Shown: piece by piece, positions 12,301-46,349 of the stretch
Layout: every line of letters begins with the position of its first letter
Numbering within the stretch: the first letter of the stretch is position 1
NCBI GenBank assembly: GCA_030390025.1
Contig: CM059431.1
Span: 140,432,001 to 140,496,000, forward strand
DNA length: 64,000 bases
Origin: Squalus acanthias
Taxonomy: Eukaryota
Direction: 5' to 3'
The notes under the pieces: generated by a model
Told to the model about the DNA's origin: nothing
Seen by the model: the letters and a program-made list of their open reading frames with translations, nothing else
Database searches by the model: none
Made by a program: the position numbers and the translations under genes

Positions 12301-15300
12301 GGTGGTGACTCTACTCGAACATTATTGACGATGATTCTATTCTAATATTACTGGTGATGAGCCTACTTTATTATTACAGGTGGTGAACCTACTCTAACAT
12401 ATCTCCTGGTGACCCTACTCTAGCATTACTGGTGGTGACTCTACTATAACATATCTCGAGGTGACCCTCTTCTAACATTACTGGTGGTGAGACTACTCTA
12501 ACATTATTGGCGGTGATTCTATTCGAATATTACTGGTGATTACACTACTCTAACATTACTAGTGATGACCATAATATATCGTTAATGGTGGTGACCCTAT
12601 TATAACATTACTGGTGGTGAGCCTACCCTATGGTTACTGGTGGTTACACTACTCTATCCTTACTGGTGGTGACCCTATTCTAACATTACTGCTGTTGATG
12701 TTAATTTAACATCAATAGTCGTGACCTGCACTAACATTAGTGATGGTGAATCTACTAAAATTTTACTGCTGTTGACACAACTAAAATGTTAATGGCAGCA
12801 ACCCTACTGTCATATTACTTGTGTTTATTCTACTCTAAGACTGATGGTGACACGAATCTAACATTCGTGGTGGTGAACTTTCTCCAATATTACTGGTGGT
12901 TCATCTACTCTAACAGTACATCAGGTCTCCATATTCTGACATTACTGATGAGTACTGTACTCTAGCATTACTGCTGGGGAACGCACGCTATAATTAATAG
13001 TGTTAATCCTATTCTAACATGATGGTGATCATAATCTAACAATTTGGCGGCGACCCACTTTAACTTTACTGATGGTAACTATACGCTAGCATTAATGGTG
13101 ATGACCCTGCTCGAACATTACTTGCGGTGATCCTATTCTCACATTATTCGTGGTGACCCTACTCTAACATTAATGGTGATGACATTACTCCAGCATTATT
13201 GGTGGTGGCCCTACTCTATCATTACTGTCGGTGATTCTATTCTAACATTTCTGATGGTGACCCTACTCTAAGATTACTTATAATCACCCTACTCTAACAT
13301 TACTGCTGGGGATCCTACACTATCATTACTGGTGGTGATTCTTTTCTAACATTACTGGTGGTGACCCAGCTCTAATATTATTGGCGGTGACCCTACTCTA
13401 ACATTACTGGTGGTGACCCTACTCTAGCATTACTGGTGGTGACCCTACACTAACATTACTGCTGTTGATCCTAATTTATCATTACCTGTTGTGACCCTAC
13501 TCTAACATTACGGTGATAACCCTACTCTCGTATTACTGGTGGTGACGCTACTCTAACATTACTGGTGATGACCCTACTCAAACATTACTGGTGGTGACCC
13601 TACTCTAACATTACTGGTGGTGACCCTTCTCTAACATTAATTGTGGTGACTCTACTCTAACATTACTGGGGGTCATTCTATTCTAACATCACTGTTGATG
13701 TCACTACTCTAACATTATTGGTTATGACCCTGCTCTAACATTACTGGGGATGACCCTACTCTAACATTACTGGTGGTGACCCTACACTAACATTACTGTT
13801 GGTGACGCTAGCTGTCATTACTGGTGTTGACCCTACTCTAACATTACTGGTGGTGACCCTACACTAACATTACTGTTGATGAAACTACACCATCATTATT
13901 GGCGGTGACCCTACACTAACATTAGTTATGGCGACCCTACTCTAACATTACTGGTGGCGACCCCACACTAACATTACTGATGGTGACTGTACTCTATCAT
14001 TACTTGTGACGGGCCTATTCTATCGTTACTGCTGGTGACCTACTCTAACATTACTGCTGTTGATGTTAATTTAACATAAATAGTCGTACCAGCACTGAAA
14101 TTAGTGATGGCGAATCTACTCTCATTTTACTGCTGTTGACACTACTATAACGTTAATGGCACTAATCCTACTGTAATATTACTTGTGTTGATTCTACTCT
14201 AGGACTGATGGTATCCCGAATCTAATATTAGTCGTGGTGATCTTATCCAATGTTTCTGTTGGTGCATCTACTCTAACATTACATGTGGTCTCCATACTCT
14301 GACGTTACTGATGAGTACTTTACTATAACATTACTGCTAGGGAAGGCACGCTATAATAAATAGTGTTAATCCTATTCGAACATGGTGGTGATCATAATCT
14401 AACAATTTGGAGGCAGCCCACTCTAACTTTACTGATGATAACTATACGCTAACATTAATGGTGTTGGCCCTATTCTAACATTACTGGCGTTGATCCTATT
14501 CTAATATTATTGCTGATGACCATACTCTATCATTACTGATGGTGACTCTACTCTAACATTACTGGTGGTGGCCCTACTCTAACATTACTGGTTGTGATCC
14601 TATTCTAGCATTAATCGTAGAGACCATACTCTATCATTAATGGTGATGAACTTACTATAACATTATAGATGGTGGCCCTAATCTATCATTACTGGTGGTG
14701 ATTATATTCTAACATTTTTGGTGGTGACCCTATTCTAACATTACTGGTGGTGACCCTACTCTATCATTATGGTGGTGACCCTACACTAACATTACTGGTG
14801 GTGACCCAGCTCTAACATTACTGGCGGTGACTCTAATCTTACATTGCTGGTGGTGACCCTAATCTATAATTACTGGTGGTGACACTACTGTAACATTAAT
14901 GGCGGTGAACCTACTCTAACATTACTGGTGGCGACCCTAATCTAACATTACTGGTGGTAACTCTACTCTATCATTACTGGTGGTAAGCCTACTCTATCGT
15001 TACTGGTGGTGACCCTACCCTAACATTACTGGTGGTGATTCTATTCTCACGTTAATATTTATGACCATCATCTAACATTACTGGTGGTGACCATACTCTA
15101 TCATTAATGGTAGTTACCCAACTCTAACATTACTGGTGGTGACCCTACACGAACATTACTGGTGGTGACCCTAATCTAACATTACTGTCGGTGACTCTAC
15201 TCTATCATCACTGGTGGTGACCCTACTCTAACATCACTGGTGCTGAGCCTATTCTAACATCACTGTTGGTGACCCCACTCTAACATTACTGGTGTTGATG

Positions 15301-16983
15301 TTAATTTAACATCAGTAGTCGTGACCCCGCACGAACATTAGTGATGGTGAATATACTCTAATTTTACTGCTGTTGACAATACTAAAATGTTAATGTCAGC
15401 ATCCCTACTGTATTATTACTTGTATTTATTCTACTCTAATACGGATGGTGACCCGAATCTAACATTAGTGGTGGTGTCCTTACTCCAATATTATTGGTGG
15501 TACATCAACTCTAAAATTACATGCGGTTTCCATACTCTGACGTTACTGATGAGTACTGTACTCTAAAATTTCAGCTGGTGAACGCACTATAAAATTAATA
15601 GAGTTCATCCTATTCTAACATGGTGGTGATAAAAATCTAACAAATTGGCGGCTACCCACTCTAACTTTACTGATGGTAACTCGACGCTAACATTAATGGT
15701 GTTGGCCTTATCCTATCATTATTGGCGCTAATCTTTTCAAATATTATTGGTGATGATCCTACTTTAACATTACTGGTGAGGATACTGCACTAACATTACT
15801 GGCGGTGATCCTATTCTATCATTAATGGTGGAGACCCTACGCTAACATAAATGATGATGACCTTAGTCTAACATTACTGATGGTGGCCCTACTCTATCAT
15901 TACTGATGGTGGCCCTATTCTATTATTACTGGTGGTGATCCTATTCTAACATTTCTGGTGATGACCCTGCTCTAACATTTCTGGTAGTGACTATACTCTT
16001 ACATTAGTGGTGGTGACCCTACTCTAACATTACTGGTGGTCACCCTACCCTAACATTACTGGTTGTGACCCTACCCTAACATTATTGGTGGTGACTCTAT
16101 TCTATCATTACTGGTGGTGACCCTACACTAACATTGCTGATAGTGACTCTACTCTAACATTACTGGTGGTGACCCTACACTAACATTACTGGTGGTTACC
16201 CTACTCAATCATGAATGTTGGTGACCCTACACTATCATTACTGGTGATGAAGCTACTCTAACATTACTGGCGGTGACCCTACTCTAACATTACTGGTGAT
16301 GACCATACTCTAACATCACTGGTGGTGACTCTACTCTAACATTACTGGCGATGATTCTTTTCTAATATTACTCGTGATGACCCTAATCTATCATTAATGG
16401 TGGTGACCCTAATCTAACATTATTGTTGGTGATTCTACTCTAGCATTTCTGTTTGTGACCTGACTCTAACATTACTGTTATTGATGTTAATTTAACATCA
16501 ATAGTCGTGACCCGCACTAACATTAGTGATGGTGAATCTAGTCGAATTTTACTGATGTTGACACTACAAAAATGTTAATGACCGCAACCCTTCTGTAATA
16601 TTACTCGTGTTTATTCTAATCTAAGACTGTTGGTGACCCGAATCTAACATTACTGGTGGTGACCCTACTCTATCTTTACTGGCAGTGACACTACTCTATT
16701 ATTACTGGTGATGACCCTACTCTAACATTAATGGTGATGACCCTACTCTAACATTACTGGTAATGTCTCTACTCTAGCATTACTGGTGGTGACTTTGCTC
16801 CAACATTACTTCTGATGACAATACTCTAACATTACTGTTGATGACCCTACTCCATCATTACTGGTGGTGCCACTACACTATCATTATTGGTGTTGACCCT
16901 ACTCTAACATTACTGGTGATGAACCTTCTCTAACATTATTGACGGTGAATCTTCACATACATTACTGGTGGCGACCCTACTCT
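9380..16983. repeat. 26-bp satellite array (consensus AACATTACTGGTGGTGACCCTACTCT), roughly 290 units, with higher-order structure
   Basis: Directly visible tandem units; a diverged block recurs at 10118, 11485, 12697, 14062, 15297 and 16483. Confidence 0.95.
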
Positions 16984-16985
16984 GA

Positions 16986-17365
16986 TGTGGCTCAGTGGGT
17001 AACACACTTGCCTCTGAGTCAGAAGGTTGTGGGTTCAAGTCACACTCCAGGGACTTGAACACATAAATCTAGGCTGACACTCCAGTGCAGTGCTGAGGGA
17101 ATGCTGCACTGTCGGATGATGCCGTCTTTCGGCTGAGACGTTAAACCGAGGCCCCGTCTGCTCTCTCAAGTGGACGTAAAATATCCCACGGCACTGCTTC
17201 GAAGAAGAGCAGCGGAGTTATCCCCGGTGTCCTTTGTCAATATTTATCCCTCACCCAACAGTATATCCAACATTACAACAGGGACTGCAAACCAATAAGT
17301 ATTTCATTGGCTGTTAAGCGCTTTGAGACGTCCGGTGGTCGTGAAAAGGCGCTATGTAAATGCAA
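16986..17365 (+). mobile_element. tRNA-derived SINE (SacSINE1/DeuSINE-like)
   Basis: A box GTGGCTCAGTGG, B box GGTTCAAGTC and an L2-like tail (aagcgctttgag...gcgctatgtaaatgcaa); five copies in the window. Confidence 0.8.
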
Positions 17366-18464
17366 TTCAGAATTAAAGGCGTCCAGAAAATTATAACACA
17401 TTACCAAAATAATCAGAGTGACCTAAAAGAAAACATATATCGTACTATGCAAAATAAACGTAAACTATATAAATCAACCAACATGTAAATGTGTGTGTGC
17501 AAGAGATAAAATTCCTTGAAAAGTGAGTGAGATCACCGCATAACCACATATGACTTTAAGCATCAACTCGCTCCACCACCGGCGCACTGTGGCTGCAGTG
17601 TGTACCATCTACAGGTTGAACTGCAGTAGCACATCGAGGCTTCTTCGGCAGCCCACCAGGGTCTCACTAGAAGGACAAGAGCAGTAGGTAAATGGTGGCA
17701 GCATCACCTCCAAGTCACATACTATCTCAACTTGGATATATATCGCTGTTCCTTCAAAGCCGCTGAGTCAAAATCCTGGAACTCCCTCCCTAACAGCACT
17801 GGGGGAGTACCATCATCACACGGAATCTTCTGAAGGGCTACTAGGGATGAGCAATAAATTCCAGCCTTTCCAGTGACGCCCATATCCAGCGACTCACTTT
17901 CAATGCAGCCACGTTCCCCGGTTAGTACTCCTAGCGAAATCGCACATCTGATCTTACTGAAGGTATTTATATTAATTATAATTGCATAGCGTTATAACAC
18001 AGAAATAGACTATTCTGGTCTATTCCCGTGTTTATACTCCACATCAACCTCCATCCACCCCTCTTCAGCTCACCTTATTATCATATCCTTCTATTCCATT
18101 CTCGGACATGTGCTTATCTAGCTTCCCCTTAAGGTCACTAATTTCGCTAGGAATAGAGACGGGAATAAATCTTCAACAGCTGATTAATGATGTCCCAATA
18201 CATTGTTACTGGAACCAATTTTTTTGAAGACGTCTTGAAATTAGATCATTGCTAATTGAAATCGTGACCTACTTGAGAATGAGTAAAATAATAATAGAAA
18301 TGGTTTAATCAGTGCTTTTGGTTTTCCCATTTGATATCCGGGACCCGTAAAACTTCTTGTCTTTGAATAAGTTCGGGAGCCTCACTGGGACTTTCCTTGA
18401 ACCGGATTGCGGGTGAATATGGAGACTTGATGATTCCCCCTTCAGTTCTCAGTGAAGTCTCCAT
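17364..18464 (-). pseudogene. Truncated inverted MS4A-like pseudogene copy (first two coding exons: 18464-18310 and 17422-17364)
   Basis: The minus strand reads METSLRTEGGII...(frameshifted)...TRSFTGPGYQMGKPKAL with the donor site deleted, then tcttttag|VTLIILV..IIFWTPLILN, cut off at a SINE. The DNA aligns to 31831-31995 and 33823-33880. Confidence 0.75.
17555..17890 (+). mobile_element. LINE 3' fragment; mirror copy at 32275-32630 (-)
   Basis: WNSLP-type terminal coding remnant plus an aataaa...gacgcccatatcc tail; same 5' truncation point as the mirror copy. Confidence 0.7.
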
Positions 18465-20251
18465 GTTCCAAGTAAAGACAGGATAATAAACACTTAGTAA
18501 ATAAGAAGGAAGTTCTACACACATTAATATGCCAACATGTCGCTTAATAATGACTAAAGAATACTCTTTATGATTTTACTGTCTGACACTGGCAATTTGT
18601 GACACTTTAACCAAGCTGGCACCGAATCTATAATTGTATATTTCTAATTCAATTAATTTCGATTGTACTTATTAATGTGATGATTTTATGTCATGTTCAT
18701 GAAGTTCTTTTCTTCCAATCTGGAGAAGTGCTTCGATTTCACGATTCTCGTGTTGAGGATTTTAATATTTCAGTTCATAAAACCAGAAAAAAAAACTAAA
18801 CCTCTGAAGTCATCTTTGTTCCCCAGTCTTGAAATTTAGACGTAGGAATGAATTGGGCGCCAATTGATCAACATATTGTTGTTGCCTTCAATTTTTTTTG
18901 CTGTCTGATATTCGTGCTGAAATCGCTAGCGTCTTGGTTTGAAAGAGATTTCGCTCCAATTATCAACCAAAATAATATTTCCAGGGACACATTTAGGTTA
19001 ATCTTCATATGAAGCAGAGTGAAAATCTTCCCACTTACGTTACATCCTTTTGTCTATCATTTTAATATTAAAAGACTTTAAAAAACTTATTAATATTAAT
19101 GTATGAGGTTACACTGTCCATTCAAATAACAATTAACATAATTGCATCAATGTAAAAATTAGTGTTTCAATTCAGTTGAACATATGCAAGTTAAGGCAAT
19201 TGTTTTAATTCTACTTTGTGTGAAGTAGAAATTGAATAAACAGATGTTACAAATAAACTGACGGGATAAGATCCTTCTATTTGCCGGGGAGAGAGAGAGA
19301 GAGAGATTTTGGTGCAAATAGCTTCACTCTCTTCTAATTTAAAAATGCAACATTACCTTGAGCAGGCATTTTAATTTACTTCTGACGTTCGAAACAACAG
19401 TCATCCAAAAACAAGGTATAGAAATAGAAACGTATAGAAGTTACGACACAATACAACAGGCCTGTCGTCCTCACGACTCACTGTTGGCGTTTAACCTCAA
19501 AGCGGACAAATTACCGAAAATAGAATTTGAGAAAAAGGACCTTGTTACAAACTCAGTACTTATATTCAGTAAACAGCCGGCTGTGAAGGATTCAACCACA
19601 GCTTGGAATTTCTACATATAAATGTTAGCATAGAAAATTCTTATCATTACACAGGGAATATTGTGTGTAATGGTTGGATTACATTTAAAACATGAGCGTC
19701 ACTGAAACTTTCAGGCTGAAGATATGCAACAATCCGAGAAAATGCTGTACTATTTATGCAGATAAACTTATCACATTTTTATATATATTTTAACTTTGAG
19801 CGACATCAGACGATATCGAAAAGGCTTTTATACGGCCCCGTCAGATTTTCAATATTAAGTCAGCATAAATTACTTGAGATTATCCATCACCGAACGGGAC
19901 TCTGCCTCCTGTTTTAGAGCCCGAGAGTCTTTAGGGACACATGGGTAATTCTGCCGGAGCTAACGGAAATTAGCGATTGGGTCGCGTTCGGGGCCGGTTT
20001 GGGACATGTTCACTGGTATTGTAAATCGGACTCATTGGGTCACTGGCCTGCTTTTATGTCGTAACTTCTGTGTATTCTTTGGGTCAATAGCATCTCACAG
20101 CATGAGTCCTATCCCTTCATCTTATCTGGACCTGTTCTAAGCATTTCAATTCAGAGGAGAAGAACAGGTATTTGAAAGAAACATGGCACGAATACTGACC
20201 TCCAATGTGAGTCTGGAAATTACCCATTGTCCTATCAGAGGAGAGACGTTT

Positions 20252-20503
20252 CGGGGGTAAAATAGGACATGTGAGGTGAAGTAAAGCAGGTTGGAATCCC
20301 ATTTCCGGACTGTTATACGAACCCTATGATTTTCATTTTTATTGATGCCTCAGGGACTGAAAATCGGGCGGAACATATATCAGGCGACCCATGCGATACC
20401 ACCATTGAAGGCAATGGGACTGAATATCGGGCGGAACATATATCAAGCGACCCATGCGATAACACCTGATTTTTATTTGCGCCCAAGGCCAATTTTACAC
20501 CCC
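20252..20503. mobile_element. Short MITE with an internal 63-bp-period duplication
   Basis: Ends are GGGGGTAAAAT and AATTTTACACCCC; GGGACTGAA.ATCGGGCGGAACATATATCA occurs at 20353 and 20416; absent from the mirror arm near 30310. Confidence 0.65.
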
Positions 20504-21464
20504 TCCGAATTTCCTGAAAATATTCCTCTTTGGTTATTTTATCGGAATGTTATATATTTCAAAGAAAGCATTTGGTACTGGAAATTAAATTGGAAAGCGC
20601 ATTTTCATACGAATGAGTGCAGTGTTCACCCGCTATTGTCCAATTATCCATTACACCTGTTTTGGTTTCCCACCTATGTTCAATTTCAACCGCATGATGG
20701 TCTACCGTTTAATTTTGGTTCATCTGTTATGGAGACTTCAGAGAGACTTCTAGCCTTTACAATGGCTAGAATTTGCAGGCAATCGACCGCTCTTTGGGCT
20801 GAGTACACTTTAGGTAGAGGTAAATGTATTAGCACTCTGCTACTGAACATAATACTGACGTGTTAGTTTTGTTTAGTTTTTATAACAAAATCTGATCTAT
20901 TTAGTTGTGGAAATAAAGTTGACTATCAACCAGCGGTAGATGGTGTAAAGACAATGTTCTGACCAAAAAGTGCATGACTGCAAGAGAGACTAAATGTTCA
21001 TGTTCTTGTTTCCTGTTCTCACATTCACTCCGTGCATCTGACGATTCAATTACCTATCTCGGTTTAGGTGGTAATCTGCAATGTGACTTTAAGACGGCCG
21101 GGCACGCACGTCCGCATGGCATCATCTGGGTCAGGGCTGTGCTTTGTAGCAGCTTCTGCACACTGTCAATAGCAACCGAAACACAGCCCGTGGTTTCAGC
21201 AGCTGCACATTTTTGTGGATGTTGAGAATCCAGCACAATGGGACTGCACCCGCTTGATTCCATTCTTAACTATCCAACTACAGCCACAGTATCTACAGCA
21301 ATGGCTGCTCCCCATTGTTACATTTGGGGTTTCCCACAAAGAAATAAGCTTCGCCCTCTCCCCTTCCTCATTCACAACTGTCCGTTGGAGACATCATCCC
21401 AAGACTTAGAGTCAGCATCCAGATGTGCTGAAGTCGCAAATCTCGGAATCTTATGCCTTTGAAT

Positions 21465-23250
21465 ATAAAAGAGGAAGAAGGGTGTTCCAATTGAGGATTT
21501 TAAGATAATTAAAGTATTTGACAAGGTAGATAGAATTTAAAAAAATGGTGGGGGGAGTCCAGAAATAGTGGACACAGCCGTAAGATTGGAGCTAGTAAAA
21601 TTCAGGATGTTAGGAAGCACGTCTTCACTCAAAGGATAGTGGAAATCTGGAACACTCTACCCAAAAAAAGCTGTATAGGCTGGGGGTTAATTGAAAATGT
21701 AAAACTGAGTTTAATAGATTTGTGTTAGCAACGGTATTGAAGGTTACAGAACCAAGGCCGGTGGATGGAGTTAAGATACAGATCAGCCAATACCGAATGG
21801 AATGGTGGGATAGGCTCCAGGGGTTGAATGGCCTCATCAGTTCCCTATGTTCCTAAATCCAAAATACTGCTGGTCTTTTTCATGACTTTACCTACCTGCA
21901 TGGGTACTTCTGGTTCTCCATTAAATATATGCGACCATTGATTACAAAATCTAATATGTCACACTTATCCACATTAAACACCATCTGTCATCTCTATCCC
22001 CAGTTCTCCAATCTGTTTTCCTGAAGGTGCTCACAATCCTGATCGATGTTTAACAAACCCTTTCCTTTTGTGCTGTTAGCAAATTGAGAGATTATTCTTG
22101 CTATTTTCAAATTTACATCATCTAAATACACAAAACAGAAAACGGGATTCCTGTGGTACACTTCGAACCCAACTCCAAACTTTCTCACTCTAACTAACAT
22201 TAATTTAGCCTAACTTTTTGATACTTGTCAATCAGCCGCCGTTATATCCATGCTGCAGCATCTTTTCTGATCCAGAAGGTCTGATATTTCTCGGGTGTAG
22301 TTACAGGACAGTTAACTATAAAAAGAAGCGAACCATTTTGTTCTTCAAGAAAACCTTGGTCAGGCCTCAGTTAGAAAACGGTGTCCAATTTTGGTCCCCT
22401 CACATGGTGAACTTGAGGATAGAATTGGTGCAGAGGAAGGCCCCGCCTTTAATACCCTGTTTGAAGCATCCTAGGCTCAAAGAAATGGGTCTGTACACTT
22501 TGGAGAAGCTTCGACTTAGTGGTGACTTGATTAAGGTTTATAAGATGATGATGGGATCAAGTTGTCTTTCTCTAGAAAAAATGCTTCAGCTAAATAGTTT
22601 AGGATGGACCAGGAGTCAAAATCTGAAGTTGTATCCTGCCAGATCTAGTTACGATTTCAGGAGATAGTTCTTTTTATCATAGAATAGTGCTCCTGTGGAA
22701 CAGGCTTGTGCGGTGGACGCCGAGTCGCTGAATTCCATTAAGCGAGGGCTGGATCTACTGTGGGCGGGTGCGGAGGGCACCTCGTACAACGGAAAGGTAC
22801 CTGATAAAGTTAATCCGGGCCGGTATGATGCCCTAGACTAATTTTAATCCCATAAACGGATCTGAGAGGAAATTTCCAGATTTTCGATTCATGATCCTGG
22901 GTTTTGATCTGTTTTGTCGCCTCTTCCAGTAGATCACATGGTTTTGGGTGGGGAGTTGAGTTTATATATTGGGAAGCAAAAGATATCACAACTGCACGGG
23001 ACAGGCTGGATGGACTAGTAGGTCTCTTCCTGTCCGCAATTTTTTGTATGTTCCTAACAAACCTTTTGTGGAAAACATTATTAAAAACCTGACAAAAATG
23101 TATACTATGAATTTACTTCATACTCTCCATCTTTACAATCGGTTACTTTTTTTAAAGATGTTGTACAAGTTCTTAAATATGACTTGACTTTCTTAAATCC
23201 ATGCAGACAGCCCTTAAATTAACCCTTGCATTTCTAAATCCTCACTAATT
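21465..23250. mobile_element. Cluster of CR1-type fragments (21465-21855 +, ~21860-22240 -, ~22290-23055 +, ~23055-23250 -)
   Basis: LVRPQLE..VQFWSP in ORF 22218-22667 and CR1 3' ends; fills the axis of the inverted duplication. Confidence 0.7.
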
Positions 23251-24124
23251 TTATCTCGGTTTCTTGATTTGAAGCGTTTGTCCAACGACTGACGTTTGTA
23301 CTCGGGTTACAGATTGGCGCAAAGTTCCGATCTAACGCCAGCGACCCAAATTGGGAGACGGCCTCAAACTGAGATATCAGACCAAAATCAGCAATCATCA
23401 GAAATCCTTGCAGCGTCTCAACAGAACCCAAACTGACTGAACTCCAAATAAATGAACAAAAAATAGTAACCATCTCTCTGCTTCACTGTTTTTTTGCAGA
23501 AATAGATTCGACACAATTTAAACTCAAACTGCAAACCTCCAAAAGATGTGCAGCTGCTGAAACCACTGGCTGTGGTTGAATTGCTATTGACAATGTACCG
23601 AAACTGCTGCAAAGCACAGGCCTGACCCAGATAATTTCATGCGGACGTGCGAGTCCCGCCGTCTTCGAATAACATTGTCGATCACCACATTAACCCAGAT
23701 GGGTTATTGATTGGTCGGATGTAGCGAGTGAAGGTGAGAACAGGAAGCAAGAAAATTAACATTTACTTGTTCTCACAGTCAGGCAATTATTTGGTACAAA
23801 CATCCCTGTATACCGGCCACCACTCGGGCACAGTCAGCATTATTCCCTAACTAAATGGAATCAGAGAATGGTGCAGCACAAATGGAGGACATTCGGCCGA
23901 TCACGCCCGTGCCGGCAGATATCTGACACATTCCGTTGTGAAAACGAAATAACAAAACAAGTACGCAAGTATTGCGTCAGTGCCAGAGTGCTGACCCCTT
24001 GAACTCCGCCATTATCGACCTACAGCGTACTGGGCCCATCGTGAGGAGAATTGGCCGCACGTTTAAGCAGCTGAAAAGGGAAAGGTCGTTTATTTAGCGT
24101 TCTCGGTAACTAAGCGTCATGATT

Positions 24125-24527
24125 TGGGCAGTGATTCTATACTCACCGTTGAGTTAGAAGGTTGAGGGCTAGATTCCCACTCCAGCACAAAATCTAGGTT
24201 GACACTCCCAGTGCCAGTACTGAGGGAATGCTGCACTATCGGAGGTGCCGTCTTCCAGAAGAGACTTTAAAGAAAGTCTCCGTCTATTTCGAAGCAGAGC
24301 AGAGGAGTTCTCCCTGATATCTTGGGACCAATATTTACCCCTCAAACAACATCACTAAAAAACAGTTTGTGTGGTCAATATCACGTTGCTGTTCGTGAGT
24401 CCTTGCTGTGCGCAAGGTAGCTGTCACCCTTCCTACATCACAACAGTGACCTTGCATCAAAACTACTTAATTCGCTGTAAAGTGCGTTGGTCCCGAGGTC
24501 GTGAAAGGTGCTATAGAAATCCAAGTT
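24125..24527 (+). mobile_element. tRNA-derived SINE, same family, decayed
   Basis: Aligns to 16986-17365. Confidence 0.75.
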
Positions 24528-26989
24528 GAAGTTTAAATAGCATCATAGAATAGGACAGCATAGATGGAGGCCATTCGGTCTATCCAGTCAGTGCCGGCTC
24601 TTTCGAAGAGCAATCCAGTTATTCCCACTCCCCGCTCTTTTTCCATATCCCTGCAATTCTTTCTCCTTCAAGTATTTATCAAATTCCCTTTTGAAGACTA
24701 CTATTGAATCGGTTTCCTCTACCCTATCAGGCAGCGCATTCCAAATACTAACCACGTGTTGCATTAACGTTTACCTTTATGTCGCCTCTGGTCCTCCCGA
24801 CAATTACGTTAAATCTGTGCCCTCAGGTTATCGATCCATAAGTCATTGGCAGCAGTTTCTCTTTATTTACTCTATCTAAACCCTTCATGGTTTTAAATAA
24901 CTCAATCAGATCTCTGCTTAGCATTCTCTGCTCTGAGGAGAAGAACCCCAGCTTCTCTAGTCTGTCCACGTGACTGTAATCCCTCAACCCTGGAACAATT
25001 CTAGTAAATCTCTTCTGCACCCTCTCCAAAGTCTTCAGCTCCTTCCGAAAGTGTTTTGCCCAGAATTGTACACAATATTCCCGCTGGGACCGAACGAGTG
25101 TTTTATATAGATTTCGCATAACTTCCTGGCTTTTGTACTCTATGACTCTATTTATTAAACCCAGGATCCATATGCTTAATAAATTGCTTTATTAACATAA
25201 ACGGACACCTTCAAATATTTGCACAAATGCGGGCAGGACTCTCTATTCCTACACCCCCTTTAAAATTGTACCTTTTAGCTTTTATTGTCGCACACATTCT
25301 TCCTAACGAATTGGATTAGCTCTCACTGTTCTGCGTTGAATTTCATCCGCCACGTGTCCGCCCATTCCACCAGCCTGGCTATGTCCTCTTGAAGTCTATT
25401 ACTATCTTACTCACTGGTTATTACACGTCCAAGTTTCGTGTCAAATGCAAATTTCGACATTAAATCCTGTAACCCCAAGTCCAAGTCAGTAATGTATATC
25501 AAAAACAGGAGTGGGCCTAGTACTGAATCCTGGTGAACAACAGTACAGTTCCCTCGATTACAAAAACGAGCCATTCATCACAACTCTCTGGTTTCTATCC
25601 CTCAACCAATTTTGTGTCCATGCTGCTACTGCCCTCTTTAAAATGGGTTTCAATTTTGCTAACAAGACAAATATGCATTATTTCTCAAATCCTTTTGAAA
25701 GTCCATATATACAACATCAGCTGCACTGCCATCATCCACCCTCTCTGTTACTTCATAAAAAAACTCAATCAACTTGATCAAACAGGAATTGCCCTTAACC
25801 AATCCGTGCAGGCTCTCCTTAATTAGTCCATGCTTGTCAAAGTGGCTGGTAATCAGCTCCCGGATTCCCCACCACGGACGTTAAACTGGCATGATTGTAA
25901 TTGCCATCCTGCTCCATTTTTTGAACAAGGATGCAACATTTGCAATCCTCCTGACCTCTGGCGCCACCCCGGTATCTGGCAAGTTTGATCCAAAATTGGC
26001 TCAGTGGCAGGAATCAAAAGGTAATGATCGACGGATGTTTTTGTGATTGGAAGTCTGTTTCCAGTGTGGTTCCGGAGGGCTGAATGCGAAGGTCCTTGCT
26101 TTTTGTTGTTTATATGATTGTTTTAGCCTTCAATGTAGGGGGCATGATGAAGAAGTTTACAGATGATACAACAATAGCCGTGTGGTTGATGGTGAGGATG
26201 AAAGCTGCAGACTGCAGGAAGATATAAATGGCTGGTCAGATGGACAGAAAGTGGCAACTGGAATGCAATCGGTGAAGTATGAAGTAATGTCTTTGGGGAG
26301 AGCTAACAAGGCAATGGAATACCCAATGAATTGTAGGATACTGAGAAGTGTTGAGGAAAAGAGGGTCCTTGGAGTGCATGTCCACAGATCCCTGAACGTA
26401 GCAGGACAGGCAGACAAGGTTGGCTAAGAAGGCATTCGGAATAATTTCCCTTATTAGCTGAAGCATTAAATATAAGAGCAGGGAAATTATGCTTGAACTG
26501 TATAAAACCTTACTTAGGCCACAGCTAGAGTACTGCGTACAGATCTGGTCACCATATTACAGGGATAACGTGATTGTACCGGAGAGAACCAGAGGAGAAT
26601 TGCGAGGCTGTTGCCAGGACTGGAGAAATTTAGCTATGAGAAAAGATTGGATAGGCTGGGGTTGATTTCTTTGGAACAGAGGAGGCTGAGGAGAGACTTG
26701 ATTGAGGTGTATAAAATTATGAGGATGCTAAATCGAGCGGAGAGGAAGGACTTATTTACACAGCAGAGAGGTAAATAACAAGGGGGCATAGAGTTAATGT
26801 ATTAGGTAGAAGGATTAGAGGGGAGATGAAGAGAAGCTTTTTAACCCAGAGGGTGGTGGGGTTCTGGAACTCACTGCCTGAAAGGGCGGTAGAGGCAGAA
26901 ACGCTCAATACATTTTAAAAGTACTTGGATATAGACTTGAAGTGCTGTAACCTACAAGGCTACAGACCAAGAGCTGGAAAGTGAGATAG

Positions 26990-27432
26990 CAAAATACTGC
27001 GGATGCTGGAAATCCGAAATAACAACAGAAAACGCTGGAAAAACTCAGCAGGCCAGGCAGCATCCGTGGAGAGAGAAACAGAGTTAACGTTTCAGGTCGA
27101 AGACCTTTCGTCAGAACTGGAAATAGAAGGAAATGAAATAGATTTAAAGCAAGGATAAAGCTGGGAAAAGGGGGAGGGGATAAAAGTCCAAAAGGAGCGA
27201 TTAAGAGACATTGAGAGACATTAAGAGATGATCAAGGCAAGAGGAGGTGTTAATGTGAAAGGTTGAGGCTAAATGATGTGTGAAATGCACTGGCAAAATG
27301 AAGGACAGCTGCCAGATTCTAGGAGGAAAAAAAAGAGGGGGGGTGTAAACAAAAGGGTGGATGAAAAAATAAAATATTAATGTGATAGGGGCTAGGTTAT
27401 GATCTAAAATTATTGAACTCGATGTTGAGTCC
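26990..27432 (-). mobile_element. Penelope-like element 3' fragment with hammerhead motif
   Basis: The minus strand gives an ORF end GLNIEFNNFRS* (27432-27397), resembling PLE GIY-YIG C-termini, then a CTGACGA...GAAAC motif. Flanked by the direct repeat AGAGCTGGAAAGTG(A/G)GAT. Confidence 0.7.
27082..27118 (-). ncRNA. Minimal type I hammerhead ribozyme motif
   Basis: agtt-CTGACGA-a-aggtc ttc gacct-GAAAC-GTT-aact: core boxes, 5-bp stem II, 4-bp stem I and a palindromic stem III (AACGTT). Confidence 0.6.
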
Positions 27433-28496
27433 AGAGCTGGAAAGTGGGATTAGGCTGGATCGCTCTTTTTCGGCCGCACGGAATCGACTAGACAAATGTA
27501 CCCCTTATGTGCTGTTAATTGATATGCTTGTATGATTCTAGTGATGATTAGAAGATTGTGGCCAGCAACGCGACAATTTCTACCTTACTTCCCTCAGTAA
27601 CCGAGGATGGATCCCATCCAGTACGGCTGACTTATCCACTTTATCGACACCAGCCTTTCTATTACATCCTCTTTATCTGTTTTATCTCATCCAGTATCCT
27701 TCCTGTTTACCGTAGCTTTGGCAAAGTCCTCTTCTTGGAAAACACTGATGCATAGTACTCATTTAATACCTCAGCAATGCCTTCTGCCTCTACCAATAGA
27801 TCAACATTTTTGCACGATTGGCCCCACTGCTCCTATGACACAAATAATTTTGTTGGTATGCCGATATGAGACCTTTGGTTTCCCTTTTATGTTAGGCGCC
27901 AATCTATTCTCGCACTGTCACTTTCCCTCTATTATTTCCTTTTTCACTTCTCCTCTTTGCTTTTTTATATTCAGCCTGATTCTCGCTTACATTATCAAGC
28001 TGACATCTGTCATACATTTTATGCTTCATCCTAGTCTAACCCCTTCGTCATCCAGGGAGCACCGGCTTTGGTTGCCCTCCCATTCCCCCTTGTGGGAATG
28101 TACCTCGACTGTACCCGAACAATCTCCTCTTTAAAGTCCGCCCATTGCTCCATTACATTTCTGCTGCCAATCTGTGACTCCAGTTTACCCGGGACAGATT
28201 CCCTCCTCAATTCGCTGAAAATAGCCCTCCTCCAGTTAAGTTTTTTTATTCTGTATTGCTCATTGTCCTTCTCAATAGCTAATCTAAACTTTATCATACA
28301 ATGATGTCTATTCCGAGATTCTACCCCACTGTGATATTTTCCACTTGACCCGCTTGAACTGCCGAAGTGAAATGCAGCGGCAGCTTTCTGGACAGCCCAT
28401 ATCTCTGAAATACAGTGAGATAATCGACCATCTGAAGTCAGGCTGTGAGAAACCAACTTCCAACAACAGCCCGGGCAGAAAAAAAGGAAACAAAAA

Positions 28497-29275
28497 GAAA
28501 TACTTGTATTTATATAGCGCCATTCACGACCACTGGACGACCCAAAGCGCTTTACATCCAATAAATGTTTTTTTTTTCAAGTGTAGTCATTATTGTAATG
28601 TAGGAAAGGCGGCAGCCAATATGCGCACATCAAGCTTCCACAAACAGCAATATGATAATGATCTGATAATCTGTGTTCAGTGATGTTGATTGAGGGATAA
28701 ATATCGGTCAGGGCAACGGGGATCTCTCCCCTGCTCTTCTTCGAAATAGCGCTTAGGCATATTTTACGTCACTTGAGAGGGCTGACGGGGCCTCGGGCTA
28801 ACGTATCCACTTAATAGTGTTTCCACTTGTGGGGAAGAGCATAACTGGAGGCCATCAGTATAAGATAGTCACAAAGAGATCAAATAGGGAATTCAGAAGT
28901 AACTTGTTTCCCCAGAGAGTGGTGAGAATGTGGAACTCTCTACCACAGGAAGTGGTTGAGGCCAATAGTATAGATGCTTTTAAGGGGAGGCTAGGCAAGC
29001 ATATGAGGGAGAAGGGAATAGAGGGATGTGCTGATAGATTTAGTTGAGGATAGACGGGAGGAGACTCGAGTGGAGCATAAATGCCGGCATGGCCTGTTTC
29101 TGTGCCGTATATCCTATGTAGCCTATTTATCATCTGAAGGACGGCACCTCCGACAGTGCAGCACTCCACTGGAGTGTCAGCCAAGATTTCTGTGCTCAAG
29201 TCTCTGGAGTGGGATTTGAACCGATAACCTTCTGATTCAGAGTCGAGGGTGCTACCAGCTGAACCGCGACTGACA
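28497..29275 (-). mobile_element. tRNA-derived SINE, same family, split by a plus-strand CR1 3' fragment (28817-29120)
   Basis: SINE tail at 28497-28806 and head at 29128-29275, with a CR1 terminal fragment between them. Confidence 0.75.
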
Positions 29276-29719
29276 CTATATAGCGAGAGTAGGGAATTCA
29301 ACGCTCTGATTTCCTTCTTCTATACAGTCCCGAAAGGTAAATAAATTAATCGTCCCCATCTACATTTCTGCAAAGTGTTTGTATAAATCTGTGCAAATTT
29401 CCATTCTGCAGTGACACCGACAAAAATAATTGCACTGACAGACCGTGGTCCGAGTAGGAACAGACTCCAGTCATCATGGTTCTGTTCTAGATCAATAGTG
29501 GGAAGGACACATAATCAGTGAAATGCAATCTCCAAAAGTTCCCCTGCTCCCTTTGTCTCGACGAATCGTTAACCCGTTTATAGAAAATGTGTTTGGGATT
29601 CATATATACACATAATTTATAACTCATAATCTCGCAATATCATAAATTCCGAAAACATGGACCACGGGTTCTAGTGTTTGATGAACAATATCTCGGGTAT
29701 GGTAATGTCATGCTTATTC

Positions 29720-30115
29720 TACTTGACTATGATTTGGTGTCCTTGAGTAATAATCCAGAGAACGTGAGCTGAAATCCCACCTTGCCAGTTTGAGAATTTG
29801 AATTCTGTTTCTGAAAAGTTCTGAAAATAAAAGCTGTTGAAAATAAAAGGCTGGCATCAGTAAAATTAATCATGAAGCTGTCGGGTTGTGGGAAAAACCC
29901 AAACTGGTTCACTGATGTCCTTTAGAGAAGGCAATCTACATTTCTTACCCCGTCTGGACCTCTGTGTGTCTCCAGTCCCAAACCAACGTGGCTGAGTCCT
30001 AACGGCCCCTCTGAAGTGGACTAGCGAGCCTGTCAGCTATATCCAGGACAACTAGGGATCGCATTAAATGCCGACCTTTCCAGCGACGCCCACATGCCTA
30101 GAATGAATAAAAACA
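29720..30115 (+). mobile_element. Second SINE family; a related minus-strand piece lies at ~43790-44045
   Basis: Degenerate tRNA-like head and a tail (ccagcgacgcccacat...gaatgaataaaa) shared with the LINE 3' fragments at 17560-17890 and 32275-32630. Confidence 0.6.
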
Positions 30116-30701
30116 ATTCAACAGATTAATATGTTCTTTTGGTACTCCGTTTCATGAGACAATGAACAAGATAAGAAATTATCATTTGGAGATTATTTTG
30201 AGATAATTGAATAATGAGTGATTCTTGAAAATCTACTGTCCAATGTTAGCGCCTAATCAATCAGTTCAAACGTTGAACCTTCCGATAAAATAACCATCAG
30301 TACGGACACAGGAAGCGTCTGACCACCTATAGGAGCAAGTGTAATATCCAGCCTCACATTACAGATCAGCATTCCCGCAATCTTTCCATCAAATATCAGC
30401 TGTTCTCCTCGGAACTGAACTGACGAAAACAGCTGCAGAAAAGATAAAATGGTTGGACTGTTGCTTTAAGAATCTAGTGAGAGAACAGGGCCAAACTCCA
30501 CCCCCCCCCCCCCCCCCGCCTAACCGGTAATATGAGACACACCCCGCAGTGTTACTCAAGTGTCCGGTCAGAAAGGCTGGCGAGCTCTGAAGGAGGACGC
30601 AGAGTCCCGACCGGTGACCGATACTCACGGGTAAGTTAAGCTGACTTCATATTGTCCATGTGATTCATTTTACCAGAGACATGGCTTTTTTTGCGATCAA
30701 T

Positions 30702-30881
30702 GGGGGCAATTTAAACCCTGGGCGATGGTGTGAAATGGGCGATGTGGAATTAGCCCCCGTTATACGCCCGCCAGATGTTCCTTTCCATTGAGATCCATTG
30801 AAGGGAAAATCTGTCAGGGCAGATAACAGCCCATTCGATGCCGCCCGTGTTACGCTATCGGTCAAAGTTAAAATTGCCCCC
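30702..30881. mobile_element. Short MITE, TIR GGGGGCAATTT
   Basis: 11-bp perfect TIR with flanks AAT and AAC; internal palindromy. Confidence 0.7.
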
Positions 30882-33157
30882 AACGTTTATAGAATTGTGA
30901 CAACTTTATCTGTATATTATCTGCATTTCAAATATTACAGTTTCTTCTCGGATTGGTGGATATTTTCAGTCCGTATTTGTCAGTTGAGGTCCTGTCCTCA
31001 AATGCAATCCAACCATTACATACAATATCACACGAACAAAGGAAACGTGTGGGCAGGATTATTTTTAACAACTGATTATTCAATTTGCATTGAACACGAT
31101 ACAGAAGTAATACTACGTCTTAGCATTCAACCGAAATAAGACACAATGTTTTACATTGATGCTATTACTTTTCTTTTTAGTTCAATAATCCGTGTAACCT
31201 CATACATTAGTAATATTTAGTGTTAAGTGATTTATTATTAAAAATATAGAGAACGTGATGAAACTTAAATGGGAAGATTTTCGCTAGGCTGTATTGAAAA
31301 AAATGCCTAGGTGTGCATGGAAATATTATTTCGGTTGGTAATTACAGCGAAATTCACAATAAAAATAGACGCTTGCGATTCCAGAAATAAAAGACACAAC
31401 AAAGCACTTCATCACCGCAGGAAACATATTGCCATCGATTTGGCACAAATCGATTGTCCCGATTAAAATTGCATGACTGGGCAGAAAGTTGCCTTCAGAG
31501 GTTTAGTTTGTTAGATTTTTTTAACTGAATTATTAAAATCCCCATCATGTGATTCGTGAAAACGAAGCACTCCTCAAGAGTCAAAGGAAATAACCATATG
31601 CACGTGACATGAACGTGTCATATTGATGGGTTCAATCGAAATGAATTGATTTCGTAGAAAATAGTTATAGATTCAATGCCAGGATGGCTATGTCGCAATT
31701 TTCCATTGCCAGATTATAATATTGTAAAGAATGTTGTTTATTTACTATTAAGTCAAATGTTGGCATTCTAATGTCTGTGGAAATAGCTTCTTATTCACTA
31801 AGGGCCATTTGTCCAGTCCTTATTTGGAACATGGCAGCATCACTGAGCATAGAAGAGAGCGTCATCAGTCCCAATATTAACCTACAATCTGGTGCAAGGG
31901 AAGCCCCAATGAGACGAGGAGGCTCCCAGACTCATTAACCAACCAGAAGAATAAACTGTCCAGGAATTCACATGGGAAAACATAAAGCTCTGGGGGTAAG
32001 ATGAAACCCTTTATTTTAATAATTTATTCCTTCTCATGTCGATCATAATTTCAACATGCAATGCTTTAATTTCAAGACGCCTTGAGTAAAATGGATTCGA
32101 GCCGCAAGTGTAGAGACATCATCAATTAGCTGATGGAGGTTAGTTCCCGTCACTAGTCGTAGAGAAATTGTAAACAACTTCAGTGTGATCACATGTAGAA
32201 TTTCACTGGGACTACCAACCGGGAATTATGTTCCTGAGTATATTTATGAGCTATACTTTTAAAAATTAATTCTGGGGATATGGGCCTCGCTAGTAACGTC
32301 AGTATTTATTTCCCAGAGCATTTCCCCATGAAAAAATCTTGGTGCACCCTGTGCTCAACGTGCTTCCACAGTGCCGTTAGCCAAGATCTCAAGGGTTTTG
32401 ACCCAGCGACGATGAAGGAACGGCGGATATCTTCCCATGTCGGGGTGGTGTGTGACCTGGAGCGGAGTTTATGGTGTTCTCATGCGCCAGCTGCCCTTGT
32501 CCTGGGTTGTGGAGTTCCCGGGTTGGAGCAGTGCCGTTAACGAAGCCTTTGCGAGTTGCTGCAGTGCATGCTGTAGATGGCGCACACTGCAGCCATGGTG
32601 CGCCGGTGGTGGAGGGAATGAATGCTTAAGGTGCTCCACAGGCATATGTGTGTTGGAGAATTTCCTCCGTGGCCATCGTCGTAACAAAAGGTTGTTAGTC
32701 CGACGATAATAACTCAGCTCATGATTCTTGCACGAGTGTTTTTTAAAAATAATATCAAGCTTGATTACATTGAACATTAACAATATTAGAATTTATATAA
32801 CTGTTCTGCAGTGTTATAGTAAATGGCAAGAATCCATGTAAATTATACAACCTGGTTCCCCGGCCCGGAGTGATCAGTTTCGGCTCTAGGCTGCCTGTAT
32901 GTCTGCGGGCTCCCAACTGACCATGAGAGCGCTCCCACCTACAAGAGAACCACACAAGCCGTGTTTCCCAGGCGAACAGCGTCATCCCTCCAGGTCTTCC
33001 CTGTGGCTGCGTGAGTCCTGACCAACCCGAGAACGTCTGCCTTGGGGACAAACAGGTTCTGTTTTTATACTATAGTACAAGCTTGATCTGTGCCTACGTA
33101 ATACATAGTTGCCGTTTTGCTGAGGCCACATTTTTAGCTGTTTACCCCACTTAATTA

Positions 33158-33342
33158 GGGCTAGAAAATCGGCTCGGGCGGTGAATCAAAACGGGCGGTA
33201 TCGGATAGGGGGCTGGTATTCCCAGGGCATGATATTCAGTTCCATTGCAGTCAAGTTGACTGAATATTAGGTGCTGCGTTTAACTGGGACGCCGATCCTA
33301 TACCGCCCGTTTTGTGTCACCGACCGAGACGAATTTCTGGCC
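33158..33342. mobile_element. Short MITE with ~48-bp imperfect TIRs
   Basis: GGCTAGAAAATCGGCTCGGGCGGTGAATCAAAACGGGCGGTAT versus the reverse complement of the right end, GGCCAGAAATTCGTCTCGGTCGGTGACACAAAACGGGCGGTAT. Confidence 0.75.
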
Positions 33343-34319
33343 AATTTTTTGGACTTTGCCTCTTTTCTACAAGCTTTCTTTATAATGCAGCAATTAGGTC
33401 ATTTTTTTATCTTTTACCGTGTTATATGGTGTCTTGGCAACTAGTATCTTTTCAGCCTTTTTGTTGACCTGGGCTTTTTGAACTTGTGTCCTTGCGTTTC
33501 CAAACTCTTTATGGTTCATACTTAGAGACAAGAGTCAAGTTCCCCTTTCTCCCACATCTGCTCATTAAGTATGCTGATGAAAGAATGCTAGGACATCTTG
33601 ACCATTTAAATGATCGTAAAGCATTCTAACAATGTGCTAATCGAATCATCTAATTCAGATTTCAACAAAGCTTTACTTGTATCTTACATCTCTCTCCCTC
33701 TCTACCTTTCTTTCTCACCCCTCTCTCGCTACTTCCCCCTCTCTCTAGCTCCCACACACACTGATATTTTTTGTATGATTTTAAATATGTTACCTTTCTT
33801 GGTCAATATTGTTCTCTTTTAGTTTACTCAGATTGTGTTGGGAATATTTTTTATAATATTCTGGACGACTTTAATTCTGAGTCCGATACCGATGCCGGGA
33901 GCACACTGAACACACTGGTGTGGCGGACTGTCGGTGAGTTTCCGTGCAATGTATGTAGTAGATACTGCAGGGAGGAATTTAAATCCGGTTGGAATTGATT
34001 AGATGAGATGCTCGAACTTTTTTGCCATTTTATGCATGGAATTGTAGCACCTTGCTGTAATATTCTTCAGATTGTCGCTATTTTATCGGAGGCATCGACT
34101 ATTCTAAACCGAATAACAATCCCGTTAAAATGGCGAACAAATGGGATGTTACAGGAACGAAAATTCCGAAGGTAAAAGCAGAAATAATAAAGTCTGCACC
34201 CAGATTTATTTAAAATATTTTTTATCGAGATGGTTATTTGTTTATTGCTATCGTATTCAACTTGTGATGGTCTGAACAATTAGCCAGTGAATTACGCTTC
34301 AGAATTTAAAACAGTTATT

Positions 34320-37310
34320 ATAGTTCACCAGAATGATACCGGGGTTAAATTAATTTTAAATAATAGGGCAAGTTGCATAGTCTTAACTTGAATACCCTCG
34401 AGAAAAGAAGGTTAAGGGGTCATCTAACGGAAGTGTTTAAGATGATTAAAGAATCTAACATGGTTGATAGAGAGGAACGATTTCCTCTGGTGGGGGAGTC
34501 CGGAACATAACCTTAAAATTAGAACTAGGCCATTCAGGGGTGACATCAGGACGCACATCTTCACGTAAAGGGTATTGAAAATCTGGTCCTGTCTCTCTCC
34601 AATAGCTGTTGAGGGTGGGGGTCAATTGTAAATTTCAAAACTGAGTCTGATCGATGTATGTCACATGCAGGAGGTTATTGAGGGTTATGGAACCAAGGCA
34701 GGCAGATGAATTCAAATTATAGATCAGCCATGATCTAATTAATAGGCGGAACAGGCTCCAGGGGCTGAATGACCTAGTCGTGATTCTGTCTTCCAATAAT
34801 TATACACAGGCTTCATCAAGTGTAATTGATATTTCTCATTTATTTCACAGTTTATACTTTCTGGGAGCCTGTGGTGCATTGTGGGAAAGACATCATCTAC
34901 AGGCCTTGTAAGTATCTCCACAATGACTCTCCATTTAAACAAAACAGTCCATTGCACGGAATACTGCTCTAATTTGACATTCTGTTTGCTGAGCTGATTA
35001 TTGACATATTCACAAAGTAACCTTTAACTGGGATTGTTTAGATATGTGGTAAGCCGTATAATTGGGTAGTTCTTGGGGATGAAATTGGAAAATTGCAGGG
35101 CGGTTACACAAGCGGTAGTGCATCGGTCGCCCGTTAGACGGCCGGCCCGATATTTAATTATATTGATTTCTTAAACTATATTGACTGTTTTACACTCACT
35201 GGGATTAAACTGGACTTCGTTGGTAGGAAAACGAATCGGCAGCCTTTTTTAACATCTACACCAATGTGTTTTACCCACTAGGCCCAGTTGTAATTCCAAA
35301 CAATTGCTCTCGTTGCACCTTTACTAGCCAAGAGTATTAACGCTATTCGGAACCAAGGCGGCTAGATGGAATTATGCTAGAGATCAGAAATAATCTAACT
35401 GAATGGCGGAACAGTTTCGAGGGGCTGAATGAACTACTCCTGTTCCTATGTTCCTGTGTTCCTAATGACTGTCCAGCCGGGATTTCATTATCTGTTCTTT
35501 AGACTCTAACCCTGACCAGTGCAGTTTCCCACTATTCAAATTGCACTGCAGAATCCAACATATAAAAACATTTTCTTCTACAAATTAGATTGAAATAAAT
35601 CTCACTTCTTCTGTTTCTCTTTTAAGCCAACTACATATCTTGCCATATTAGGTCAAATGTTGTTTCCAGAAAGAAAAAGTAGACTCTAATTTGATTGCTC
35701 TTTCAAAGAGCCGGCACAGACTTTATGGACCTGATGGCCTTCTTCTTTGCTGTAAGCTTCTATTATTCTATTTTTATTGGAATAAATCCGTTTTGTATGG
35801 AAATGTTAACTCCTTAATATCTTCAGATGGGCGCTTTCAATTTGATTTTCCACCCACACAAAAAACTGCATTGTGTATACATCACTAAACTCAGATATTG
35901 TAGTAATCTTTTCCTTATTCTTCGAAGGTGGCGACGTGGCTGCTGCTAAATACAATCAGTGCCCTTCTTGGGGGAGCCAATCTGGTCCTGTATTGCATTT
36001 ACCTCGAGGTTATGACCCCACTCATTTTCTGCCCTTCCGGAACAGTCTGTGAATCTGGGCCCATTACTTTGGCTGTAAGTACAGAATTGAAATATTAATC
36101 GCAGAATTAGAGAATGAAACAGCAGAGCGGGAGGCCATTCGGCCCATCCTGCCAGTGCTTGCTCCTTTAAAGAGTTATCCAGGCATATTCACTCCACTGC
36201 TATTTCTCCATAACTTTGCAAAATTTTCCGGATTGAAGTATTTATCCAATTCCCTTTTGAGAGGCATTATTGAATCCACCGCGCGTTCAGGCAGTACATT
36301 GCCTATCACAACAACTCGCTACATAATTTTTCCTCACGTCGCCTTTGGTTAATTTGCAAATTACCTTAAATGTCTGTCCTCTGGGTACCGACCGTGCTGC
36401 CACTGGAACCAGCTTTTCCTTATTTACTCTATCAAAAGCCTTCATGATTTTGAACAATTCTACTAAATGTCCCCTTAAACTTCTCTGCTCCAAGGAGATC
36501 AACCCAGTTTCTCTAGTCTAGACAGATTACTGACTTTTTTCATCCCTGGTACCTTTCTATAACATCTATGTGCTCCCTCTCTCAGGCTTTGACATCCTTC
36601 CGAAAGTGTGGTGCTTTGAATAGGCCACATTACTGCAGCTGAAGCCTAAGCAATGTCTTATACAGAGTTAACTTAACTAACTTTATATATAAATATTCAA
36701 ATCAGCACTCTCTTTGGCCTTGTTACGTGGGTTGCACAATTAAATAATTTCCTACGAGAAACTTTCGAGATTGCCCTTCACAGTTCAGCTTTCCATTTTG
36801 CAGGCAAACACAGGCGCAATAAAACCAGTGGTCGGCGGATCAACTTGAGAGAGAAGCAGTGAGAAATCCCTTTAGGAGGCGTCTTGTTTCCCATCTTACG
36901 AAGTGTAAACGCAAAGCAGTCAATTCACCGTTTCAATGGGATGAGAGGACTTCCTCTGAAGACATTTATACAGGAAACAAGCTTGAAGTTAAAGTAGATA
37001 TTTAGGGAGTCAACACAAATTTGCTTAAATTCTCCAAATAGTTAAAAAAAAATGATTACATAGATAGTGTGAATTAACCAGTGGCAGAGGGTCGGTAACC
37101 AAAGGACACAGTTTGAAGATAATTGGCAAAAATCACAGAATCTTGAATAATAATATTCAAAGTGAAATTTGATAATACATGAACGGAAAAAAATGGCGAT
37201 GGGGAAAGGGCCGGGGAGTGGAATTGGATATCACTTTCAAGGTATAAGCATATGCACGAAGGGCCGAATGGCCTCGTTCTGTACTGTATAATTCTGTGAT
37301 TATATGAATT
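34320..37310. mobile_element. Several short CR1 3' fragments in MS4A introns (34320-34790 +, 35320-35465 +, 36110-36680 -, ~37070-37310 +)
   Basis: CR1 terminal motifs (gatcagccatgatct...aatggcgga...ggggctgaatg) and RT C-terminal remnants. Confidence 0.7.
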
Positions 37311-46150: not shown

Positions 46151-46349
46151 TTCTGATGTTCTTATATTCTTTATTGTATCCCAGCAGTAGGTCTATCACT
46201 GCTGCTGCAAAACTGGTCAGTCATTGTGTTCGAGTACTTGGTATAACACCAATGCTGCAAAAGCAGATTCATCGCCAGTCGTGCAGTAGATTGATCTCCG
46301 TCAGTGCAACAAGAGTGGGGCCGCCAATAGGAATATAATCATCAATAGC

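Follow-up and report, generated by a model that had tools for sequence, protein, structure and literature searches.

The stretch of DNA analysed here (the window) comprises 64,000 nucleotides of Squalus acanthias (GenBank assembly GCA_030390025.1, contig CM059431.1, positions 140,432,001 to 140,496,000 of the forward strand). Two divergently oriented cassettes lie in it, each with the remains of a putative MS4A-like gene and each followed, further outward, by a tandem array and a predicted GPR139-like G-protein-coupled receptor (GPCR) gene. The mirrored parts cover 5.9-21.2 kb on the left and 23.5-49.7 kb on the right. The first-pass annotation had described an inverted duplication between 17364 and 33880. 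The inner homology it reported was found, but these limits are too narrow, as the symmetry reaches ~5940 on one side and 49702 on the other, and the paired satellite and receptor genes outside them had been missed. The features of the mirror are as follows.

5940..6528, minus strand: 3' flank of the left GPCR gene, 70% identical to 49119-49702
6548..8232, minus strand: left GPR139-like GPCR gene, intact open reading frame of 319 codons (exons 8232-8163 and 7437-6548)
9404..16983, minus strand: satellite with a 26-bp unit in 294 copies, located upstream of the left GPCR gene
16986..17368, plus strand: short interspersed element (SINE) linking the left MS4A-like stub to the satellite, with at least 4 relatives in the window; presumably tRNA-headed
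17367..21223, minus strand: left arm, the 5' portion of an MS4A-like cassette
17367..17422, minus strand: left MS4A-like exon 2 stub (56 bases, 2-nt deletion), truncated by the SINE
18311..18464, minus strand: left MS4A-like first coding exon, frame broken and splice donor deleted
21224..23533, no strand: spacer of CR1 remnants and low-copy DNA (~22961-23533), not self-complementary
23534..33880, plus strand: right arm, the 5' portion of the paralogous cassette, containing ~6.4 kb of mostly SINE and CR1 sequence at 23866-30225
31831..31995, plus strand: right MS4A-like coding exon 1, ending in GKHKALG and a GT donor, in-frame TAA at 31936-31938
33823..33933, plus strand: right MS4A-like exon 2, in-frame TGA at 33907-33909
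34851..34907, plus strand: right MS4A-like exon 3, 57 nt, with the FILSGSL motif
35928..36074, plus strand: right MS4A-like exon 4, third hydrophobic segment and two cysteines
38435..38560, plus strand: right MS4A-like exon 5, fourth hydrophobic segment
39576..39650, plus strand: right MS4A-like probable last exon, 24 codons, placed by acceptor and frame only, the weakest part of the model
46227..47218, plus strand: degenerate tandem array of 49-bp units that is related in inverted orientation to the 26-bp satellite and precedes the right GPCR copy
47676..49085, plus strand: right GPR139-like pseudogene, exon 2 with 5 single-base indels and 2 stop codons

Inverted homology between the two arms

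The six inverted anchors of the first-pass annotation are all exact reverse complements at their reported coordinates. Each is single per strand in the window and lies inside a longer inverted alignment, and their order is nested and collinear; by arithmetic, about two chance 12-mer matches are expected between arms of such size. Nine inner alignments were obtained, and all scored above the maximum of 30 shuffles made for each block:

20891-21223/23534-23865: score 350, shuffle maximum 29 (79% identity)
20531-20607/30226-30296: score 47, shuffle maximum 23
20084-20252/30312-30480: score 146, shuffle maximum 28
19841-19981/30519-30663: score 109, shuffle maximum 22
19658-19850/30805-31028: score 158, shuffle maximum 35
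18140-19256/31059-32169: score 889, shuffle maximum 40
17917-17969/32171-32223: score 58, shuffle maximum 22
17545-17823/32347-32650: score 200, shuffle maximum 30
17367-17506/33742-33880: score 112, shuffle maximum 38

The pooled identity of eight collinear blocks, excluding the short block around the 17-mer (20531-20607/30226-30296), is 75.2% over 2381 columns, corresponding to a Kimura two-parameter (K2P) divergence of 0.30 ± 0.013, and 2595 of the 3857 bases of the left arm (67%) are aligned to the right arm. At this identity the arms appear to be old, in agreement with the earlier description of the duplication as ancient. The left arm had also been called the reverse complement of the right; this holds for inverted homology and not for exact complementarity, the arms being 75% homologs with large gaps. 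Transversions are at least as frequent as transitions in the aligned arms (107 transitions and 171 transversions in the longest block).

The most conserved block is 20891-21223 (minus strand)/23534-23865, at 79%. It exhibits no codon-position bias and no Pfam match, and is probably non-coding. It is located 8 kb upstream of the right MS4A-like exon 1, and both copies have kept CAGCTG and CAGGAA motifs, which we take to be E-box and ETS-like sites; an enhancer or a first exon is possible. A donor-like GTAA(G/T)T is preserved in both arms near 19873 and 30631 (blocks 19841-19981/30519-30663), and an acceptor is present at 31803, 28 bases before the ATG, so that an untranslated exon is possible as well. 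Codon-position bias was absent from all seven MS4A-side stretches, exon 1 included (p 0.20-0.61), where the short blocks gave the test low power, while the GPCR control was positive (p 0.003). No pyrin or death-fold domain was detected in the 12 frames across the conserved upstream blocks, from which a decayed domain could escape.

An axis had been proposed at ~21.2-23.5 kb. The spacer there has no self-alignment (score 27, shuffle maximum 43). Its low-copy part (~22961-23533) prolongs the right cassette in other copies, and the inner end of the left arm adjoins a CR1 remnant. Since the relatives of the right arm run on into the spacer and the spacer does not align to itself, it is not a fold-back point. 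The greater length of the right arm had been ascribed to later transposable element insertions, which is correct for the most part: the right cassette took up ~5 kb of upstream repeats, and 77% of the main gap 23866-30225 consists of sequence that either recurs in the window or is similar to CR1 protein, in agreement with the depth of public contigs there. The remainder is not explained in this way. Two low-copy stretches of the gap (23917-24112 and 30096-30225) have no counterpart in the left arm, and loss on the left therefore also contributed to the difference.

The MS4A-like genes and possible further copies of the arms

The right copy was modelled with six exons (31831-39650) and 226 codons. 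The internal exons are in phase 0 with AG..GT borders, and the model has four hydrophobic segments, with hydropathy peaks of 2.1, 1.2, 1.7 and 2.5, the second being weak. The frame of exon 1 is continuous apart from the single TAA. LGFTQI, FILSGSLW and the two loop cysteines match MS4A, and THWCG and LLLN match partly; on these motifs and the exon layout, the MS4A identity is putative. Left copies of exons 3-6 were not found in the window. As read from the assembly, both genes are dead, the right by two stop codons and the left as a stub of 1.5 exons. The previous proposal of two MS4A-like genes placed head-to-head is retained as to their divergent orientation, but both genes are broken.

Contigs from four of the 12 listed public runs (X1, X6, X8, and X9) were aligned to 17300-37200 at 82% likeness. 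Run X1 is from this species, X8 and X9 are from other organisms, and the aligned contigs were shorter than 900 bases. X1 contigs that differ from the window at 0-3 positions show a depth of 33-37; one of them, with 3 differences at unlisted positions, crosses the right TGA (33907-33909). The summed X1 depth of seven bins lying mostly in arm blocks was 310-691, compared with 8e3-1.8e6 for the repeat bins. Within 40 of the 4898 difference rows, an alternative letter at arm positions was carried by 3-11 X1 contigs with a depth of 90-543, and at the same positions a remainder of 33-44 was often left for the copy in the window. As only 5 of 159 arm-arm windows of 100 columns reach 82% identity, cross-placement of the opposite arm cannot explain the extra depth. 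Roughly 3-15 further arm copies of at least 82% identity may thus be present in the species. The arms had been called unique sequence, which does not agree with several additional copies at this level among the public contigs. Copies of at least 82% elsewhere, against 75% between the arms, would also give each arm nearer relatives than the other arm, and the arms are tentatively regarded as members of a low-copy family. X8 and X9 yielded contig numbers similar to X1, and contigs of these two runs with ~86% identity span the border of the spacer and the right arm.

The anchor blocks are themselves low-copy, with depths in the hundreds, two to four orders of magnitude under the repeat bins; the anchors are thus not parts of a dispersed high-copy repeat. 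The block 17545-17823/32347-32650, which holds no anchor, is a high-copy repeat with a depth of more than 1e5 and 159-167 loose ends at 17566.

The outer mirror and the receptor family

The sole relative of the 26-bp satellite in the window is the inverted array of 49-bp units at 46227-47218 (score 112, with no shuffled unit out of 200 scoring above 15), which has decayed to a dimer unit. In both copies the array is situated upstream of the receptor, in the orientation of the gene. The identity between satellite units falls with distance, from 0.66 at one unit to 0.43 at ten, and a weak rise at lags of ~950-1240 bases hints at a higher-order repeat.

The left GPCR contains a 7tm_1 domain (E 3.6e-22). 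Segment 8143-8257 pairs with 47650-47765, and 6554-7467 pairs with 48161-49073 (77%). The divergence of the GPCR flank is 0.38 ± 0.033, compared with 0.30 ± 0.013 on the MS4A side. Beyond 5940/49702, in the GPCR intron, and between the satellite and GPCR exon 1, no mirror was found clearly above shuffles. Nothing on the left is collinear with the right-hand stretch 33881-46226, and no alignment links the inner and outer parts of the mirror. The stretch between the satellite and the start codon of the left GPCR (8258-9400) does not align with 47219-47650 on the right, a stretch absent from the left gene, contains small palindromes and resembles 40545-40688; it is perhaps an insertion that replaced the promoter of the left GPCR.

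The best database relatives of the left GPCR are shark proteins automatically named GPR139-like (1196 matches among 3446 candidates). “GPR139” is here an automatic RefSeq/UniRef label for a family distinct from GPR139 proper, and the product is a predicted receptor. The left and right copies are identical at 64.6% of residues, with a synonymous divergence (dS) of 0.54 and a ratio of nonsynonymous to synonymous divergence (dN/dS) of 0.41, while proteins of other sharks reach 82% identity to the left copy (Pristiophorus) and 76% to the right copy. Among the 120 homologs listed, 74 are nearer to the left copy and 59 nearer to the right copy than the two copies are to each other. This set had been selected for similarity to the left copy, and it contains no sequence known to be from this species. 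Two trees were calculated, a quick one with 122 rows and a careful one limited to 36 rows picked by hand. The two GPCRs fall into separate subfamilies (support 100/99 and 99/98), and sequences from Heptranchias, Pristiophorus, and galeomorphs occur in both. Forcing the two GPCRs to be sisters costs 154.5 log-likelihood units (approximately unbiased test, p-AU 5e-50). By this tree placement the subfamilies are older than the main shark lineages. A preprint presents two conflicting trees, and in one of them Hexanchiformes separate from other elasmobranchs at ~278-288 million years ago and the remainder at 256 million years ago (10.64898/2026.02.13.705779). Combined with the membership of both subfamilies, these dates indicate that the GPCR split is probably more than 200 million years old. 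This age dates the receptors and not necessarily the MS4A arms, whose divergence is a little lower. In other sharks, many GPR139-like proteins are encoded on few contigs per species (for example records of 74.9 Mb in Heterodontus and 9.28 Mb in Heptranchias), which suggests dense receptor clusters there too.

Other repeats are present in the window. Six short palindromic elements resembling miniature inverted-repeat transposable elements were observed at 30701-30882, 33159-33342, 38156-38236, 50206-50331, 8377-8468, and 40486-40539. More minisatellites are located at 4-335, 58157-58581, and 59348-59711, with units of 48, 32, 33, and 70 bp; the 32-bp and 33-bp arrays are related. Two young CR1 long interspersed element (LINE) copies at 1689-4872 and 51565-54747, inverted and 47 kb apart, bracket the mirror. 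They are 96.9% identical (99 substitutions in 3170 columns; 49 transitions and 50 transversions, the same tendency as in the arms). The pair was considered as a component of the mirror and rejected, as the flanks differ at both ends; the two copies are separate insertions. They could have served as a template for inversion.

Origin of the arrangement and comparison with known systems

We lean towards the view that the arms are two old paralogous MS4A-like cassettes whose 5' halves stand head-to-head in a birth-and-death cluster of the shark genome, where genes are gained and lost by segmental duplication. An ancestral cassette was duplicated in the distant past, and its copies are 75% alike at present. 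Both lineages would then have given rise to more copies elsewhere that, by the rough evidence of the contigs, are nearer to each arm than its neighbour is. The divergent orientation may have arisen at the duplication or through a later inversion, two routes that are indistinguishable here. The left copy was truncated in the middle of exon 2, losing all that followed, and a SINE lies at the junction; the right copy gained ~5 kb of upstream repeats and two stop codons. Each cassette is followed outward by a satellite and a GPR139-like unit, the latter of a different old subfamily on each side. As a palindrome the arms serve no function today.

Several points weigh against this view. The order of GPCR, satellite and MS4A-like gene is mirrored exactly and the two divergences (0.30 ± 0.013 and 0.38 ± 0.033) are similar, for which one large duplication would be simpler. 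Summed contig depth is not equal to copy number, as overlapping short contigs inflate it, and the evidence for the copies comes from only 40 of 4898 difference rows. The claim that each arm has closer relatives than the other arm depends on the 82% threshold rather than on a tree of MS4A-like genes. Finally, MS4A profile and homolog searches returned no match, the queries being weak ones of single exons with 22-50 residues (exons 4 and 5 in the homolog search, and likewise single exons against Pfam).

The next most likely explanation is one ancient inverted duplication of the whole MS4A-like/satellite/GPR139-like unit before the main shark lineages separated, more than 200 million years ago. 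The window would then be a decayed relic in which the GPCR was kept on the left and the MS4A-like exons survived longest on the right. We consider it possible but on the unlikely side. Order and strand are perfectly nested over 15 kb and 26 kb, the only relative of the satellite in the window lies at the mirrored place (112, compared with 15 in 200 shuffles), both GPCR subfamilies have Heptranchias, Pristiophorus, and galeomorph members, and divergence is alike on the MS4A and GPCR parts. However, no alignment connects the MS4A part with the satellite and GPCR (33881-46226 is unpaired), the divergence of the GPCR flank is ~2 standard errors above that of the MS4A side, and the GPCR intron does not align. 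A palindrome of this gene cluster older than the shark radiation, with receptor, satellite and MS4A-like gene duplicating as one cassette, is doubtful to us. If it were true, two candidate chemosensor families would have co-expanded in sharks, and introns and promoters would be alignable over more than 200 million years, a datable fossil of cluster evolution.

The first-pass proposal, in which unique DNA was duplicated once by folding back about an axis at 21.2-23.5 kb, is quite improbable. The anchors are nested about the spacer and single in the window, but several closer copies outside the window extend into the spacer, the spacer lacks self-alignment (27 versus 43), the arms are seemingly not mutual closest copies (at least 82% elsewhere versus 75%), and the GPCR pair are not sisters. 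That the matches come from a dispersed high-copy repeat or from an error of assembly is, in our view, the least probable explanation: one block (17545-17823/32347-32650) is high-copy, but the anchor blocks have depths in the hundreds, two to four orders below the repeat bins, and include exons and splice sites, an identity of 75% rules out a mis-joined haplotype, and parts of the right arm are covered by X1 contigs that differ at 0-3 positions.

As a pair of old paralogous cassettes, the locus appears to represent ordinary turnover in a multi-copy cluster, one more dead paralog pair of limited importance. It also points to an unannotated multi-copy MS4A-like family interleaved with a large GPR139-like receptor family in a shark. 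If the families do duplicate as one unit, this would provide a testable lead on shark chemosensation and a gauge of slow non-coding decay. A literature search of listings, with subscription journals outside its coverage, found no report on shark GPR139-like expansion or MS4A linkage. In the necklace neurons of rodents, MS4A proteins serve as chemoreceptors that are not GPCRs. Shark chemoreception is described as dominated by V2R (PMC7776563).

MS4A genes are described as clustered, on 11q in human and with 21 members in zebrafish, and spiny dogfish is known to have three of them (PMC2826416). The motifs given for the family are LGAXQI, GYPFWG, FIISGSLS, SLX2N and two loop cysteines (PMC11663944). 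The right copy resembles MS4A/CD20 in having four hydrophobic segments and two cysteines in the second outer loop, and in part by its motifs, where LGxxQI-, FIISGSL- and GYPFWG-like sequences follow one another in this order; clustered paralogs are a further resemblance. The differences are that both copies are broken, GYPFWG is degenerate, and profile and database searches with single exons gave no match. With the “probable G-protein coupled receptor 139” family of sharks and rays (RefSeq/UniRef), the receptors share the two-exon layout and tree placement inside the family, and the left one also the 7tm_1 domain.

Birth-and-death multigene clusters with inverted segmental duplications are a known general class. 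The locus has in common with them cassettes in both orientations, pseudogenes beside intact genes, and repeat gain and deletion after duplication. Unlike in such clusters, non-coding DNA here aligns at 70-79% although the GPCR subfamilies, by their tree placement, predate the shark radiation, which fits the slow substitution rates described for sharks (PMC10587355).

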